DNA of 64,000 bases from Archaeoglobus sp. JdFR-22. Lineage in GTDB: Archaea; Halobacteriota; Archaeoglobi; Archaeoglobales; Archaeoglobaceae. The position numbers were made by a program, and so were the translations under genes. The notes beneath the pieces were generated by a model, which was not told where the DNA came from, did no database searches, and saw only the letters and a program-made list of their open reading frames with translations. Numbering within the stretch: the first letter of the stretch is position 1; every line of letters begins with the position of its first letter. The stretch spans positions 18,832 through 82,831 of the forward strand of contig MTMJ01000022.1 in the NCBI GenBank assembly GCA_002010045.1, given 5' to 3'. This document shows, piece by piece, positions 33,137-48,344 of the stretch.

Positions 33137-33223
33137 GCCGCCGTAGCTTAGTTTGGTAGAGCGTCCGGCTGTTAAATCCCTGCAGAAACCGGACGGTCAC
33201 AGGTTCGAGTCCTGTCGGCGGCG
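33137..33223 (+). tRNA. tRNA-Asn(GUU) with a ~13-nt intron at position 37/38
   Basis: Hand-folded cloverleaf:
- acceptor GCCGCCG/CGGCGGC
- D arm GCTT-AGTTTGGTA-GAGC
- anticodon stem TCCGG/CCGGA, interrupted after CTGTTA by AATCCCTGCAGAA
- T arm ACAGG-TTCGAGT-CCTGT
- discriminator G
No CCA is encoded. The mature length is 74 nt. Confidence 0.85.
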
Positions 33224-33329
33224 TGTTTATTTATGTTTTATGTCTTCTCATGACTTCCAGTCGGGTGTTAGTAATTTAATCTCTAATTTTTACAAAACTA
33301 TTATATTCCAAATACAATTAACATCGCTC

Positions 33330-36300
33330 ATGGAGATTAAGGAGGGGGGCATTGTACGTTCACCATTCTGGCCTGAACCTGTTAAAGTTGAAAAGATTGT
33401 TAAAATTGGTGAAAATTTCAGAATTGTTGGCTCGACCATAAACTCCAACCAGTATGTTGATGCTGTTTTAAGTGAAAAAGAGATGGAGAAGATTGAGGTC
33501 TTTGTTTATACAACGGACTTTTCAGCCAACGCAGAAGATGTGTTTCTTGCATTAGAAGCTTACAGGTTCAAGCTTGCCTCCCTTTTTGACCCTCTACTTG
33601 CTATGAATGTCTCAAGAGTTGACCCCCTCCCGCATCAGATTGATGCGGTTTACGATTTTGTTTTAAAGCTGCCAAGAATAAGATTTCTGATAGCAGACGA
33701 CCCCGGAGCAGGAAAAACAATTATGGCTGGTTTGATAATAAAAGAACTGAAGCTGAGGGGTTTAGCAAAGCGGATACTGATTGTCGTTCCCGGTCATCTG
33801 AAAGATCAGTGGAGAAGAGAACTAAAGGAGAAGTTCTCTGAAAGTTTTACCGTTATTGACAGGGGAACGATTGATTCTCACTACGGGGAGAACGTCTGGG
33901 AAAGGGAAAATCAGATTATAACATCCATTGATTTTGCAAAGCAGGACACAATTCTGCCGTCAATTGAGAGTGTTAGCTGGGACTTGGTGATTGTTGATGA
34001 AGCCCACAAAATGGCTGCCTACAGATTCGGAGATAAGCTCAAGGAAACGGCAAGATATAAGCTTGGCAAAATTTTATCCAGAAACTCAGACCACCTCCTT
34101 ACTCTTACTGCAACACCTCATAAGGGAGACCCAGAAAACTTCAGGCTTTTTCTGGACTTGCTCGAACCCGGCTTTTTCTCTTCTACCGAGATGTTAAATG
34201 AGTCGATAAAAAATAGGGATAATCCCTTATTTATAAGGAGACTCAAGGAGGATTTGAGGGATTTTGATGGAAAACCATTGTTTATGCCAAGATACGTTAC
34301 AACAGTCAAGTTTAGCTTGAGCAATGATGAAATCAAACTCTACAATGAACTATCTAACTACGTAATAACTCAATACAACAAGGCATTGAAGAGCGAGAAG
34401 AAGAGGAACGTTGCCTTTGCACTTCTTATTCTGCAGAGAAGGATGGCTTCAAGTGTATATTCTGTCAAACGCTCACTCGAGAGGAGAAAGAAGAGGCTGA
34501 CAGATATACTGCACGGTGAGAAGGAGAAACCAGTAAGACAGTTTGAGATTGAAGATGAAGTGGATGACTACGATGAAGAACAGAGGTGGGAAGTAGAGAG
34601 TGAATGGGAAACTTTGAGTGTTGCTGAGAACGTTGAAGAGCTTAAGAGGGAGATTTCGATAATTGAACATCTTATAGAGATGTGTGATGAGATAATCGAG
34701 AGGGAAGAGGAAGTCAAGCTCTCTGAACTCAGAAAACTTATGGAAAAGGATGAAATAAAGAAACAAAAAATTCTCATTTTCACAGAATCGAGAGATACTC
34801 TCGAATATCTTGTTGAGAAGATACGTTCGTGGGGATACAGCGTAATAGCCATTCATGGTGGTATGAAGCTTGAAGAAAGAATCAAAGCTGAGCAAATCTT
34901 CAAGCATGAAGCACAGATAATGGTTGCAACTGAAGCAGCAGGAGAGGGAATAAATCTCCAGTTCTGCAACATAATGATAAATTACGACATACCATGGAAT
35001 CCGAACAGGCTGGAGCAGAGGATGGGAAGAATACACAGATACGGGCAGGTTAAGGAGGTATTTGTTTACAATCTTGTTGCAAAGGATACAAGGGAAGGAC
35101 AGGTTCTCTCCAAAATCCTTGATAAGCTTGAGGAGATAAGAAAAGCGTTAGGAAGTGACAGGGTATTTGATGTTGTTGGTGAGGTGTTTTATGGTAAAAG
35201 GCTGTATCAGCTTGTGCTCGAAGCAGCAGCAAATGCAAGAGATGTAAATGAGATTGAGAAGGAGATTGACATAAAGGTTGATGAGGAGTATATTTCAAGA
35301 GTTAAGGAGGCTCTGGGCGAAAGTCTGGCAACAAGATTTATTGATTACACCCGTATCAAGGAAATGGCTGAGAAAGCGAAGGAATACAGATTGATACCTG
35401 AATACACGGAGTCATTCTTTGTTAAAGCCTTTGAGAGAGCTGGAGGGAAGATAGTTAAACACGACCAGTTCTACAGAATAGATTCCATACCGTATGAAAT
35501 CAGAAGGATTGCAGATGAAGTTACATTCAGGAATACATGGGGAATACTTGCCAGAAAGTATGCGAAGATTACATTTGACAAAGATATCGCTAAAAATTAT
35601 CCTGAAGCTGAATTTGTTTCATTCGGGCATCCTCTTTTTGAGGTAATCCTTGAATGGGTCTTGAGGAACTACAAGGAGAATGCAATAAGGGGCGCTGTGT
35701 TCAAAGACCCATCAGGAATATACAACGGCAATATATGGTTCTTTGAAGGAGAAGTTAAGGACGGAAAAGGAGTCGTTGCAGGAAAGAAGCTCTTTGCAAT
35801 TTACGATGATGGAAATATGAATGAAATAAATCCGTCCGTAATCTGGGATTTTGCCTATCATTCTGGAAGTTTTGAATTTGATGAAGGGCGGAAATCAGAA
35901 GCTGAAAGTTATGCTATTAATGCATTAAACAGATATAAAGCTGAATTACTGAAAGAGAGGGAAAGGCAGGCAGAAATAAAAGAGAAATATGGAATTAAGT
36001 CACTCAAAGCCCTGATTTCAGAATATGACGGAAAGCTCATGAATTACTATACAAGGGCTGAGAAGGGAGAAAAGATGGATTTGGCAATTCAGATGGCTAA
36101 GAGGAGGAAGGATGATTACCAGAGGGCTTTGGATGAACTTAAAGATGAGATAGTGAGAGAGAAACATCTCAGCATCTCAATGCCCAGATTTGTTGGTGTG
36201 ATAAGGGTTGTTGCTGGAGATGAGATGGTCAGCGATGAGGAGATTGAAAAGATAGGAATGGATGTTGCCATGGCTTATGAAAGACAGAATGGAAGAATAC

Positions 36301-45615: not shown

Positions 45616-48228
45616 GTGATATGTATGAGGCCATTCCACATGATTGCTCTACCTCATAAAGACATACTCGAAGGCAGACTTACAATGGACGTTTTTGCTG
45701 CTGACTTATGGAATGTTTTTAAAGGTGAGGCAGTTGATGATTACAAAAATCCTGATTCTTTCTTTCAAAAAACCTATCCAACCTTTGGATTGAGAAACTT
45801 GCTGAAAATAGCAGGAAAGAGGTTGAGAAGTGAGGGTGGAGACTCTGTCATCCAGATTCAGACTCCTTTTGGTGGAGGTAAGACTCATTCTCTGATCGCA
45901 CTGTATCATGCCTTCTCAACTGGAAAGTACGTTGAGGATGCAATTAAAGCAAATGTTGTCGTAATTGTTGGAACTGCTATCAGCCCAAAGGAGGAGAACG
46001 GGAAGATAACGGGAACAATCTGGGGAGAAATTGAAAGACAGCTTGAAGGTGAAGTAAAAGAGCTTGACCTGTCTGTTTCACCCGGTAGAGATAAGCTTGA
46101 AGAATTGTTCAGAAAACATCAACCACTCCTTATTCTGATGGATGAAGTTCTTCAATATACTACCAAAGCTGCTGGGATAAAAGTTGGAGACTCAAATCTT
46201 GCCTCGCAAACAATGGCTTTTATGCAGGAATTAACAGAGTGTGTTAAGTCCTTGAAGAAAACTCTCCTCGTTCTAACACTACCATCAAGCATTATTGAGC
46301 ACTACGACGAGAGTGCGGAGAAGCTGTTTGTTCAATTGCAGAAGGTTTCGGGAAGAATGGAGAAAATCTACACTCCAGTTGCTGGTGAGGAAATTTACGA
46401 GGTTGTGAGGAGAAGACTTTTCAGGGAAATCGATAATGAAAGAGCAAGAGAAGTTGTTGAAGAATTCGTGAATTATTACGAGAGAGAAGGAATAATTCAG
46501 GAGAAAGCAGAATACAGAGATAAAATGATGAAGAGCTACCCTTTCCATCCTGAAGTTATTGATGTCCTTCACAACAGATGGGGAAGCATTCCAACTTTCC
46601 AGAGAACAAGAGGTGTTTTGAGAATACTTTCTCTTGCAATCTACAGACTAAAGGATTCATCCATACCACTCATACGCCCATGTGATTTGGATTTAACATA
46701 CAGTGAGCTTGCTGAAGAGCTCATCAAACATATAGGGAGAGAATATGAGAGCGTTTTGTCAGCAGATATAACAGGAAGTAATGCTAATGCAAAGAAAGTT
46801 GATAAATCAACTGGAGTTACATACCAAGGCTTAAATCTTGGAACGAAGCTTGCTACTGCCATCTTCCTCTACTCATTCTCAGGTGGAGAGAAAGGAGCAA
46901 GTTTGGGTGACCTCAAACTTGCATGTTCTGACACAAACGTACCATCAAGCGTGATAACTGATGTGATTGAAGGATTGAAGAGCAATCTTTTCTACCTTCA
47001 ATCTGACATTACAAGATACTTTTTCACTTCCCAGCCAAACTTAAACAGCATTCTTGTGACAAGAATGTCCGAAATAGATAACGGAGTGATAAAAGCCGCA
47101 ACCAAATCATTGACTGAGAGGTTCTCAGGTAAGGATATTCCTGTTTACATCTGGCCTTCAAAACCAAAAGATATTCCGGATTCAGAGGAATTGAAGCTCA
47201 TAATACTGCCTGAAAATGATGGAAAGTTGTGCAAGAATATCCTTGAGAATTACGGTGAGAATCCGAGGGTTAACAAGAATACCCTATTTTTCCTGTGCCC
47301 GATGGAGTCTGAGAGATTCTCCTTTGAGAACTGGCTCAGAAAACTGCTCGCATGGAGAAGAATAGATGAAGATAAATCGCTTAATCTTACCGAACTGCAA
47401 CAGAAAGAAGTAAAGAAGAATTTGGGAGAGATGAGCAAAGCTGAAAGAATTCAGCTGAGGAGTTTTTACAGGCTTGTTTATGTTCCATCAAAAGACGGAT
47501 TCAGAGAGATCGATTTGGGAATTCCTGTTTTTGGTAAAACAGAGACATTGAGCAGGGAAGTAATTAACAGACTAAAAGCTGAAGGTGAAATTGTTGAAAA
47601 ACTCTCTCCATTACTGATTTCTGAGAAATACCTGCGAGATAAAGACTATGTTGAGACGGGCAGGCTCTTCAAAGCCATGCTCTCAACCCCGGGAGAACCG
47701 AGAGTTACTAAAAGTAAGTTCATCAGTTCAATCAGAGATGGCGTTAAACAGGGTATTTTTGGCTCTGGAATTCTCAGGGATGGCAGTGTGGAATGTTTGA
47801 AGTTTAAAGAGAATACAGAAGTCCTGCTGAGCGATTATGAAGTGATAATAAGAAAGGAGATTTGTGAGAAGCCCAAAGCGGAAGAAGGAAGGGTTGAAGA
47901 GGAATTAGAAGGATATGAGGAAGTAGAAGAGGAAGAGAAAGAAACTGGTATTCTGGTAGAAGATGAGGATAAGGAGAAACCAAAGCCTCCTGTGGTAATA
48001 CCCAAATTCAAGAAGGTAAAGCTCTCTGTTGAAGTTCCGAGAGGTAAGTTCTCAGAATTTTACACTGGAGTTATCCTGCCCATTGAAAAATCCTTTGGTG
48101 AAGCTGAAATAAAAATTGAAATTGAGGCTAAGAATGGTGAGATTCCAAAGAGTGAGTATGAAAATAAGGTAAAAGAAACACTACTTCAGATTAATGCAAA
48201 ATTTAAGGAAGAAGAGTTGGAGGAGTGA
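45616..48228 (+). CDS. DUF499/COG1483-type P-loop ATPase
   Basis: 870 aa; [10 protein letters not shown]-terminus, [16 protein letters not shown] (Walker A), PLLILMDEV (Walker B), acidic E-rich linker before a C-terminal domain. Confidence 0.8.
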
Positions 48229-48230
48229 TT

Positions 48231-48344
48231 ATGTCTTACTGGCTCTGTATAACAACGGAAGAGAACTGGGATGTTATAAGAAAAAAGAATGTATGGGGTG
48301 TTCAGGAGAAACATCGCAATACGATTGGCCTCATTAAAAGGTGA
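48231..48344 (+). pseudogene. truncated EVE/PUA-like domain gene fragment
   Basis: 37 codons, [37 protein letters not shown], matching the N-terminus typical of archaeal EVE-domain proteins. It is then terminated, and the downstream frames are degraded. Confidence 0.45.

Follow-up and report, generated by a model that had tools for sequence, protein, structure and literature searches.

A complete Hma operon with gene cassettes at its junctions beside tRNA-Asn in an Archaeoglobaceae-like chromosome

The 64,000-nt stretch of DNA analysed here (the window) comes from an Archaeoglobaceae-like chromosome and contains a complete Hma operon between tRNA-Asn(GTT) and the gene for ADH synthase (Table 1). 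Three intact genes dominate the approximately 15 kb that directly follow the tRNA gene, and the flanks carry the housekeeping genes argS, proS, ADH synthase, mfnA, and mobA. An earlier reading of the same DNA, made from the letters alone (the sequence-only reading), had already reported this island, its housekeeping flanks and three large ORFs, which it took for an SNF2 helicase with a nuclease fold, a DUF1156 methylase, and a DUF499 ATPase; all of these assignments were confirmed. Its identification of the tRNA also holds: Rfam recognizes a tRNA at this position (61 bits), and ARAGORN yields Asn(GTT) when introns are allowed. The default ARAGORN run called tRNA-Leu(TAA), which was rejected as an artefact because introns are disallowed in that run.

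Table 1. Features of the Hma island, with positions in the window.
Feature	Position	Strand	Length	Description
tRNA-Asn(GTT)	33137-33223	+		13-nt intron at about 33175-33187; left island border; ARAGORN with introns allowed
hmaA	33330-36614	+	1094 aa	Intact; SNF2 helicase with C-terminal NOV_C/PD-(D/E)XK nuclease; predicted effector
105-aa-family pseudogene	36611-36929	+		Start overlaps hmaA stop by 4 nt
vapB	37002-37262	+	86 aa	Antitoxin, AbrB/MazE fold; Pfam MazE_antitoxin 6.9e-15
vapC	37228-37638	+		Intact; PIN-domain toxin; Pfam PIN 4.2e-20
MNT pseudogene	37660-37960	+		Minimal nucleotidyltransferase antitoxin; +1 frameshift in A-run near 37770
p461	38000-39385	+	461 aa	All-helical N-terminal region (1-312); C-terminal PD-(D/E)XK-like domain (DUF8371)
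hmaB	39390-42161	+	923 aa	Intact; DUF1156 N6-adenine DNA methyltransferase; predicted self-marking enzyme
MBL pseudogene	42158-43196	+		Metallo-beta-lactamase fold; start overlaps hmaB stop; at least one frameshift between 42487 and 42560
p385	43247-44404	-	385 aa	TIM-barrel protein, closest fold tRNA-guanine transglycosylase (TGT); module gene 1
UPF0175 fusion	44455-45060	+	201 aa	N-terminal domain like PDC-M19A/DarG C-terminus, C-terminal UPF0175; putative antitoxin/regulator
DUF3368/COG2405 gene	45069-45542	+	157 aa	PIN-like protein; putative toxin
hmaC	45616-48228	+		Intact; DUF499 ORC/Cdc6-like AAA+ ATPase; predicted sensor/scaffold
Truncated EVE-domain gene	48231-48344	+	37 aa	N-terminal stub; right island border; Pfam EVE 1.1e-3

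The core genes lie on the same strand in the order A-B-C, and PADLOC profiles match all three products over their full length (1e-135 to 1e-206). HmaA (4.3e-206, residues 16-1063) comprises the Pfam domains SNF2-rel_dom, Helicase_C, and NOV_C. It retains the helicase motifs GAGKT126, DEAH223, and motif VI at position 563, and its residues D1002, E1016, K1018, and E1032 are the counterparts of the four nuclease residues essential in Halomonas HmaA. HmaB is recognized by PADLOC (1.8e-135 and 5.1e-132) and by the Pfam families DUF1156 (7.9e-23) and N6_N4_Mtase, and contains the motifs WWARRP41, FAGGG111, and DPPY528 as well as Cys pairs at approximately 214-219 and 281-284. HmaC (PADLOC 4.9e-135, residues 3-854; Pfam DUF499 5e-48) keeps GGGKT86 and LMDE174 and lacks an N-terminal HEPN domain; its match to the NCBIfam model DUF499_antiphage (4.7e-50) falls below the cut-off of that model. 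Gene calls for hmaC gave 862 and 867 aa, and its true start is likely the ATG at 45625 or 45640.

The name Hma, which the sequence-only reading had correctly traced to the PADLOC paper, dates from Payne et al. (2021), and for the triad itself, which the sequence-only reading attributed to Makarova et al. (2011), the literature consulted credits Anantharaman (2013) and Bell (2020). The triad has been placed among the type-1 DUF499-centred BREX-related systems, with homology to BrxC, BrxXI, and BrxHII of type-3 BREX (Rakesh and Krishnan, 2026, PMC12839542). The earlier statement that neither mechanism, target, nor phenotype had been established is outdated, as E. coli gains protection from T4 through HmaA on its own, provided that the PD-(D/E)XK residues are present, and nickase activity dependent on Mn2+ has been shown for the C-terminal domain of HmaA (Liu et al., 2024, PMC11232893). 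The overall mode of action is most likely restriction-modification-like. HmaB would mark host DNA by N6-adenine methylation, HmaC with its ORC/Cdc6-like AAA+ ATPase and wHTH domains might recognize unmarked foreign DNA or license action on it, and HmaA would nick or degrade this DNA by means of its SNF2 translocase and PD-(D/E)XK nickase. Self-marking is a proposal even in the Halomonas model system, since T4 from an HmaB-expressing host still did not escape HmaA (Liu et al., 2024, PMC11232893).

The 2.8 kb between hmaA and hmaB appear to have accumulated a VapBC pair, still live, with dead 105-aa and MNT genes on either side of it, and a DUF8371 PD-(D/E)XK gene in place of HepT. The 105-aa family, with 48 homologues of which none has a Pfam family, is represented by a copy with two lesions, a +1 frameshift (A8 at 36682-36689 vs. 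A7 in the sister allele L112/L113) and an in-frame TAG at 36825-36827 where the sister allele has TGG, both identical in three assemblies. Undamaged copies coupled to hmaA occur in L112/L113 and L114/L115. For vapB, a 144-aa ORF from 36828 was rejected because it reads through in frame from the 105-aa pseudogene, and the 86-aa homologues in L112/L113 begin at MVRIRTVGKKGQ; vapC is 90-93% identical to the copy in that allele. The MNT gene, absent from the sequence-only reading, yields after repair of the frameshift a product matching NTP_transf_2 (1.6e-18) and PDC-S09 (1.3e-28). It has no HepT partner in the window, and intact MNT and HepT genes occupy the same position in L112, L113, L107, and L031. 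The p461 gene (GC 0.317) stands exactly where the sister allele has HepT and ends 4 nt before hmaB. Its product matches the LmuA C-terminal profile (1.8e-13), PDDEXK_3 (1.4e-3), and, by precomputed annotation, DUF8371; Foldseek matches of the AF2 model (pLDDT 78) to PD-(D/E)XK nucleases are weak. Members of this rare family (31 representative clusters) stand alone elsewhere, without Hma, and a remnant with 78% identity abuts hmaB in L040. The AT-rich p461 gene appears to have replaced HepT in the window.

The 3.5 kb between hmaB and hmaC, one gene of which lies on the opposite strand, hold the MBL pseudogene and a self-contained module that encodes a TGT-fold protein, the UPF0175 fusion, and a PIN-like protein of the DUF3368 family. 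The MBL pseudogene was traced by a three-frame reading, with Lactamase_B (6.1e-9) matching the N-terminal fragment, and is split identically in seven assemblies. For p385, no match was found in Pfam, NCBIfam, PADLOC, or PHROG. In a Foldseek search of its AF2 model (pLDDT 79.5, pTM 0.81) against the PDB, all 50 matches listed, out of 57 with E <= 0.001, were TGTs (E from 3e-7, TM 0.51-0.59). The 201-aa protein matches UPF0175 (9.2e-12), PDC-M19A (3.1e-13), and PDC-S70 (1.3e-9), and the 157-aa protein PDC-S70 (7.6e-16) and DUF3368 (4.2e-3, with an additional precomputed match); UPF0175 is reported to partner exclusively with COG2405 (PMC5499597). In five other contexts (L028, L029, L067, L110, and L111) the p385 gene is always accompanied by the UPF0175 and DUF3368 genes, and three of these (L029, L110, and L111) have no Hma nearby.

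The 3' end of hmaC would have received the EVE gene, now truncated. Homologous N-termini of about 36 aa, aligned over the length of the stub, occur upstream of hmaA in L050, L054, L064, and L069, and a partnership of EVE with Hma in archaea has been described (PMC7641849). The island thus contains four pseudogenes, namely the 105-aa, MNT, and MBL-fold genes and the EVE stub, and lesions recur identically in three to seven independent assemblies. A small gene coupled or adjacent to each core gene, as the sequence-only reading had it, is indeed present, but all three (105-aa, MBL-fold, and EVE) are dead or truncated; a toxin-antitoxin module after each core gene was also claimed, and none follows hmaC.

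Composition separates the inserted segments from the core. The two gaps have GC contents of 0.335 and 0.353, both below the value of any equal-length window outside the island, and tetranucleotide distances of 0.27-0.30 vs. a background maximum of 0.246. GC content in the three core genes is 0.405 vs. 0.407 in the background. The AT-richness ascribed to the entire island is therefore real for the inserts, whereas the core matches the genome. This contrast between a host-like core and deviant cassettes indicates piecemeal assembly. It is extremely improbable that all genes of the 15 kb arrived as one unit, on an integrative mobile element targeted to the tRNA. The position immediately 3' of tRNA-Asn would suit such an element, as would the published finding of integrases in the vicinity of 19% of hmaA genes (Liu et al., 2024, PMC11232893) and the tRNA-Thr and tRNA-Ser genes near L067 and L028, respectively. 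However, none of the island proteins searched against profiles matched a family of integrases or recombinases, the tRNA 3' end is not directly repeated at the far border, and this border consists of the truncated EVE gene without an att site. A relative without the island was sought and none was found; the view that the island is accessory is based on its composition, its decay, and the patchy distribution for which Hma is known.

Among 80 HmaB-related loci surveyed, the core genes always keep the order A-B-C on one strand, with median gaps of about 0 nt. The survey showed the insertion pattern known from the literature, where about 66.5% of hma loci carry inserted genes and the locus has been termed a defence-gene insertion hotspot (Liu et al., 2024, PMC11232893); nucleases embedded in such loci, PD-(D/E)XK and PIN types among them, have been catalogued (Rakesh and Krishnan, 2026, PMC12839542). 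The sister allele L112/L113, with 97% identity in the HmaA C-terminus and 92-93% at the DNA level as far as the MNT gene extends, reads hmaA-105aa-vapB-vapC-MNT-HepT-hmaB with all inserted genes intact and p461 absent. Non-contiguity had led the sequence-only reading to consider an undescribed variant. A distinct, elaborate Hma in which small genes, nucleases, and toxin-antitoxin modules are integral co-evolved subunits is unlikely. In its favour, three junction genes are translationally coupled to core genes: the 105-aa and MBL genes overlap the stops of hmaA and hmaB, and p461 nearly touches hmaB here and as a remnant in L040. Coupling of the 105-aa gene to hmaA extends to two or more further lineages, the p385 triad is also present in or beside Hma in L028 and L067, and embedded nucleases have been proposed as "backup effectors". 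Against this, four of the genes are pseudogenes beside an intact core, relatives mostly have a compact operon, as does L030, the closest full operon (77/75/64% identity), every cassette is found elsewhere without Hma, near-sister alleles differ in having HepT or p461, and cassettes and core are unlike in composition. The "elaborate" parts appear to be independent cassettes and not new Hma components.

Alternatively, the insertions could have broken the operon and left a decaying relic, nonfunctional as a system, with ORFs that are intact through recency and not through selection. Four pseudogenes within 15 kb and the two interruptions, including an opposite-strand gene, are compatible with this, and truncated (L112) or split (L114/L115) hmaB and an hmaC remnant (L028) show that Hma loci do decay. 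We nevertheless regard it as very unlikely, as approximately 8.7 kb of core coding sequence are uninterrupted with every catalytic motif kept while the lesions lie in small neighbours, which points to purifying selection acting on the core; moreover, the core is fully host-matched in composition, and HmaA is able to act alone (PMC11232893). The locus is very probably a complete type-1 DUF499-centred BREX-related system whose junctions and 3' end form a hotspot at which unrelated cassettes are inserted and deleted. It is a normal, intact copy of a described anti-virus system, and its filled junctions follow a pattern already reported. Several observations run counter to this interpretation: besides the failure of T4 to escape HmaA after growth on an HmaB-expressing host, the insertions break an operon that is tight in relatives, and hmaB or hmaC is missing alongside some 15-20% of HmaA homologues (Liu et al., 2024, PMC11232893).

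The one item in the locus that may be new is the TGT-fold triad. It has been encountered three times in or beside Hma loci, in the window, in L028, which has an hmaC remnant, and in L067, and these co-occurrences may reflect a functional tie to Hma.

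The island directly 3' of tRNA-Asn carries a helicase-methylase-ATPase (Hma) defence system. The sequence-only reading had recognized three long intact ORFs exactly where the table places hmaA, hmaB and hmaC, and had assigned them to Hma; both statements hold, as all three PADLOC Hma profiles match over the full length of the proteins and the functional motifs are intact. HmaA keeps GAGKT126, DEAH223 and motif VI. As in other Hma systems, it combines an SNF2 helicase with a C-terminal PD-(D/E)XK domain, whose residues D1002, E1016, K1018 and E1032 are the counterparts of D1084, E1104, K1106 and E1121 of Halomonas HmaA, the four PD-(D/E)XK residues required for defence (Liu 2024, PMC11232893). 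HmaB retains motif I (FAGGG111) and motif IV (DPPY528), and HmaC retains Walker A (GGGKT86) and Walker B (LMDE174). HmaC scores 170 bits with the NCBIfam equivalog DUF499_antiphage, whose cut-off is 1200, and so falls outside this narrower subfamily. The DUF1156 methylase, the DUF499 ATPase and the helicase are thus the same three proteins, in the same order A-B-C and on the same strand (+), as in described Hma (type-1 BR) systems, with 2775 nt between hmaA and hmaB and 3454 nt between hmaB and hmaC.

Features of the Hma island in the window, and all examined contexts of the three-gene module around the 385-aa gene (positions with an L prefix lie in related loci on other contigs)
Feature	Position	Strand	Description
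hmaA	33330-36614	+	PADLOC HmaA 4.3e-206, residues 16-1063; Pfam SNF2-rel_dom, Helicase_C, NOV_C (NOV_C 1.1e-23)
105-aa family gene	36611-36929	+	overlaps hmaA stop; 48 homologues, no Pfam family; dead in window
vapB	37002-37262	+	86 aa; followed by intact vapC
MNT antitoxin gene	between vapC and 461-aa gene	+	frameshifted in A-run
461-aa gene (DUF8371)	38000-39385	+	ends 4 nt before hmaB; GC 0.317
hmaB	39390-42161	+	PADLOC HmaB 1.8e-135 / 5.1e-132; Pfam DUF1156 7.9e-23
MBL-fold gene	hmaB-hmaC gap	+	overlaps hmaB stop; frameshifted
385-aa gene	43247-44404	-	TGT-like fold; opposite strand to hma genes
201-aa gene	after 385-aa gene	+	UPF0175 protein with extra 150-aa N-terminal domain
157-aa gene	after 201-aa gene	+	DUF3368 PIN-like protein
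hmaC	45616-48228	+	PADLOC HmaC 4.9e-135, residues 3-854; Pfam DUF499 5e-48
EVE N-terminal stub	after hmaC	+	37 aa
Three-gene module, window	43247-45542		hmaB-hmaC gap
Three-gene module, L028	L028:6606-8897		beside remnant of hmaC N-terminus; 77/75/64% identity
Three-gene module, L029	L029:6909-9158		
Three-gene module, L067	L067:7654-9977		within hmaA-hmaB gap
Three-gene module, L110	L110:4911-7182		co-directional
Three-gene module, L111	L111:220-2515		co-directional

Two related defence systems share components with this locus. Type-3 BREX (BrxC, BrxXI/PglXI, BrxHII, PglZ, BrxA, BrxB), to which Rakesh & Krishnan (2026, PMC12839542) tied the Hma triad, has a homologous ATPase, methylase and helicase, and the PADLOC BrxHI|BrxHII profiles match HmaA (1e-116 and 3.8e-114), as PglXI matches HmaB (1.9e-13). 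These BrxH and PglXI scores are far below those of the Hma profiles, no PglZ, BrxA or BrxB match was obtained in the island, and the effector, unlike in type-3 BREX, is a fused PD-(D/E)XK nuclease; we therefore reject this assignment. DISARM likewise combines an SNF2 helicase with a nearby methylase, and the DrmD profile matches HmaA at 2.6e-169 (PADLOC). The likeness to DrmD and DrmA is confined to the helicase, the HmaA profile fits better, NOV_C is not found in DrmD (Liu 2024), and the island encodes neither DrmB (DUF1998) nor DrmC (PLD), so DISARM is rejected as well. Since none of PglZ, BrxA/B, DUF3780, an HKD domain at the helicase N-terminus, DrmB/C and LmuB has a Pfam or PADLOC match among the island proteins, the locus belongs to the type-1 BR systems, and not to type-2 or type-3, in the scheme of Rakesh & Krishnan, as a variant without a HEPN fusion on DUF499. 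In their architecture the helicase also has a TUDOR domain at the N-terminus and an inactive REase internally; for the window protein both are predicted from its full-length alignment to the HmaA profile.

Hma was named by Payne 2021, with 1,638 instances in 26 phyla. The earlier statement that no mechanism, target or phenotype is established for it is out of date: in the experimentally studied system, that of Halomonas meridiana, HmaA by itself protects E. coli against T4, and its C-terminal domain nicks supercoiled DNA (Liu 2024); a phenotype is known for this HmaA only. The best-supported mode of action is a restriction-modification-like one, in which HmaB would methylate adenines of the host DNA, the ORC/Cdc6-like ATPase HmaC would sense unmodified DNA or license action on it, and HmaA would translocate along the DNA and nick it. 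Experimental support covers the HmaA step only, in a bacterium (Liu 2024). Because T4 did not escape through HmaB expression in the Halomonas-system study (Liu 2024), we still infer the methylation step. In close relatives, hmaB is broken near residue 495-508. One of them (L112:2411-3892) has an hmaB cut short at about 496 aa; in two others (L114:7287-11718 and L115), an insert with an M48 peptidase gene and an MNT-HepT pair separates a 488-aa DUF1156 part of the gene from a 410-aa catalytic part. This position may be a second hotspot, or the halves may form a functional split methylase.

From the small genes between the core genes, the sequence-only reading had concluded that the locus might be an undescribed, unusually elaborate variant. 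This could not be upheld, because insertions are common according to the literature and recur in the loci that we surveyed, and the small genes coupled to the core genes are dead. Inserted genes occur in about 66.5% of hma loci, which have been termed a defence-gene insertion hotspot (Liu 2024); in Halomonas, Septu and an AAA_21 pair lie between the core genes. Scanning metagenome contigs with HmaB yielded 80 loci, and the order A-B-C on one strand is kept in every one of them (80/80). The A-B gap, measured in 60 loci, has a median of about 0 nt and exceeds 1 kb in seven and 2 kb in three; for the B-C gap (73 loci, median again about 0 nt) these counts are 13 and seven. L030, the nearest complete operon (77/75/64% identity), has a compact layout. 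Among the surveyed loci with both gaps measurable, only L067 shares with the window two junctions of more than 2 kb, so that the window ranks with the most elaborate loci of a known continuum. The inserts of other loci (Schlafen/HATPase_c_4, AAA_15/21 ATPases with partners and MNT-HepT pairs) match the literature, where PD-(D/E)XK, HEPN, PIN, Schlafen and OLD-ABC effectors are catalogued as embedded genes (Rakesh & Krishnan 2026). The window differs from the studied Hma systems in its archaeal (Archaeoglobaceae-like) host, in lacking a HEPN fusion on its DUF499 protein, in four associated pseudogenes, and in its cassettes, which are VapBC, a DUF8371 nuclease and the TGT-fold/UPF0175/DUF3368 module instead of Septu, PARIS, OLD-ABC or Schlafen.

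The turnover of these cassettes can be followed at the hmaA-hmaB junction by comparison with a near-sister allele (L112/L113). Amino-acid identities amount to 97% for the HmaA C-terminus, 90–93% for VapC and 95% for MNT, and the DNA is 92–93% identical from position 35900 to 37939 of the window; homology stops at the end of MNT. The sister allele reads hmaA-105aa-vapB-vapC-MNT-HepT-hmaB, with all genes intact and no 461-aa gene. Base-level alignment locates the window lesions as A8 for A7 at 36682-36689 and TAG for TGG at 36825-36827, both in the 105-aa gene, and one extra A near 37770 in MNT; all pseudogene lesions of the island are identical across 3–7 independent assemblies. According to this comparison, HepT was replaced by the 461-aa gene in the lineage of the window, and the MNT antitoxin gene, left without its toxin, decayed. 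MNT-HepT abuts hmaB in two further loci (L107 and L031), and in another (L040) a C-terminal remnant only of a 461-aa homologue (78% identity) adjoins hmaB. The window and its sister allele thus provide direct evidence that cassettes have been exchanged at one specific junction in a thermophilic archaeon. The locus is useful as a worked example of hma junction turnover; its Hma triad offers no novelty. In many independent assemblies of the window population (L001-L006, L014, L024), contigs end inside the 461-aa and the 385-aa genes, although the assembled sequence is 100% identical; strain variants that co-exist in the population and differ in these cassettes may account for the breaks.

The 105-aa family is recognizable by the N-terminal motif GWNNG...GAGYGLRI, and several Archaeoglobales-type Hma loci have a member in translational coupling with the stop of hmaA. 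Its members were located at L112:712-1029, L113:753-1070, L114:6001-6318 and L116:7001-7312, in the last case standing alone near a BREX/SbcCD region. Genes of about 200 aa in the A-B gaps of other loci were tested as further members and are not homologous.

In the 461-aa protein, the N-terminal 312 residues are helical and the C-terminal domain is PD-(D/E)XK-like, as supported by the C-terminal profile of LmuA (1.8e-13), a weak PDDEXK_3 match and a precomputed DUF8371 assignment. A whole-chain fold search with the AF2 model (pLDDT 78) gave no significant match, the weak ones being to PD-(D/E)XK nuclease domains only. The LmuA match raises the option of a Lamassu system, which we reject, since this single profile covers the C-terminal half only, no LmuB occurs in the island, and weak LmuC matches fall on the 201-aa UPF0175 protein alone. 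The family is rare (31 representative clusters among 1.8 billion proteins), its homologues elsewhere are solitary and without Hma, and we found no literature on DUF8371. The 460-aa genes adjoining the three-gene module in L028 and L029 were compared with it and are not homologous.

An archaeal COG1743-DUF499-SNF2-nuclease operon together with EVE was described by Bell 2020 (PMC7641849), and the window resembles it in the triad, the archaeal host and the attached EVE gene. Unlike in that operon, EVE is reduced in the window to a 37-aa stub downstream of hmaC, and modified-base reading by EVE has presumably been lost. Four related loci (L050:1330-1437, L054:61-168, L064:165-272 and L069:1216-1323) also have EVE-type N-termini, about 0.5 kb upstream of their hmaA and with 56–64% identity to the stub over about 36 aligned residues. 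The EVE partner therefore has no fixed position.

The hmaB-hmaC gap contains one lead worth following. Its 385-aa protein belongs to a family without any match in Pfam, NCBIfam, PADLOC or PHROG, Pfam TGT and PADLOC DpdA included. From its AF2 model (pLDDT 79.5, pTM 0.81) the protein is predicted to have the TIM-barrel fold of TGT: the best 50 of 57 Foldseek matches in the PDB (E <= 0.001) are all TGT, with E-values from 3e-7, probability 1.00 and TM 0.51–0.59. Membership in TGT/DpdA at the sequence level is rejected, because no profile matches and the 385-aa profile finds no TGT among PDB sequences; the sequence also has no Zn-binding Cys cluster (CxCxxC...H). D194 and D253, the latter within GFGxDSLGxxH, are invariant in the family and D123 nearly so, and the three residues could be counterparts of the TGT catalytic aspartates. 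A scan of viral contigs revealed no relatives of the protein, nor did a fold search of BFVD yield anything significant.

Homologues of the 385-aa protein adjoin UPF0175-type and DUF3368 genes in all five other contexts examined (six of six with the window). The genes are arranged divergently or co-directionally, and Hma is nearby in some contexts and not in others. Three times the module lies in or beside an Hma locus, namely in the window, in L067 and in L028. The latter locus is otherwise devoid of Hma and retains, at L028:6432-6544 just downstream of the DUF3368 gene, a HmaC N-terminal remnant (residues 4-41, 47–64% identity), from which it follows that the junction of the module with hmaC was once present in that lineage and that hmaC was deleted later. 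UPF0175 has been reported exclusively with COG2405 (PMC5499597), and the 201-aa and 157-aa proteins form such a UPF0175-COG2405 (DUF3368) toxin-antitoxin pair (PADLOC candidate PDC-S70). Unlike in the known pairs, the TGT-fold protein is always present as well (6/6 contexts), and the UPF0175 protein of the window has its extra N-terminal domain. Previously described COG2405 systems with three components have HTH and DUF955 partners instead of a TGT-fold protein, and we found no literature on DUF3368 together with a transglycosylase or on the 385-aa family. It is conceivable, if rather unlikely in our estimation, that 43247-45542 represents an undescribed three-component toxin-antitoxin or defence module, in which an enzyme of divergent TGT fold is combined with a DUF3368 PIN-like nuclease and a UPF0175 protein that has gained an extra N-terminal domain. 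An enzyme of this kind could swap or excise a base of tRNA or DNA. Should the TGT-fold protein prove catalytically active, base-exchange chemistry would have a new role in archaeal conflict systems, distinct from Dpd.

The island extends from 33224 to about 48430 (~15.2 kb) and had been described as more A+T-rich than its flanks. This applies to the two inserts (GC 0.335 and 0.353) but not to the core genes (0.405 vs 0.407 in the rest of the window). Each insert has a lower GC content than every window of the same length outside the island, the 461-aa gene being the most AT-rich, and the tetranucleotide distances of the inserts (0.30 and 0.27) exceed the background (0.166 ± 0.023, maximum 0.246). 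Insertion of the whole island as a tRNA-integrated element is rejected, since there is no recombinase gene and no direct repeat of the tRNA 3' end: integrase and recombinase families were absent among the island proteins scanned, no tRNA-derived direct repeat occurs in 33000-48500, and at the borders of the island and of its cassettes, a search for att repeats and long inverted repeats returned short repeats at chance level only. Together with the host-like GC of the core and the deviant inserts, this speaks for an Hma core that is either long-resident or matched in composition, with cassettes acquired piecemeal, rather than for a single integrative element. The best reading of VapBC, of UPF0175/DUF3368 with the TGT-fold protein and of the DUF8371 nuclease is that of independent systems sharing a hotspot, perhaps as modules for addiction or abortive infection or as defence systems of a single gene. 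They may also cooperate with Hma, in the role that Rakesh & Krishnan call ‘backup effectors’.

The chromosome is Archaeoglobaceae-like, the nearest ProRS matches in a scan of GTDB genomes being Archaeoglobus and Archaeoglobaceae MAGs (64–82% identity), and sequence identical to the window is present in several JGI and Logan metagenome assemblies. The ProRS scan revealed no island-free relative, the MAGs found having neither conserved synteny nor a tRNA after proS, and exact-protein look-ups of proS and mfnA retrieved the same population alone, with the island every time. The tRNA and the housekeeping flanks named by the sequence-only reading were confirmed: 33137-33223 encodes a tRNA-Asn(GTT) whose 13-nt intron occupies the canonical position (ARAGORN, introns allowed; Rfam tRNA 61 bits), preceded by argS and proS, and downstream of the island lie ADH synthase, mfnA and mobA. 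By default, without introns, ARAGORN called the same stretch tRNA-Leu(TAA), an assignment rejected because allowing introns yields Asn(GTT); this mis-assignment of an intron-containing archaeal tRNA is a caveat for the automated annotation of archaeal windows. A second VapBC pair, consisting of an AbrB/MazE antitoxin and a PIN toxin, is located outside the island between argS and proS (30428-31091), and with a GC content of 0.355 it is more AT-rich than the neighbouring genes.
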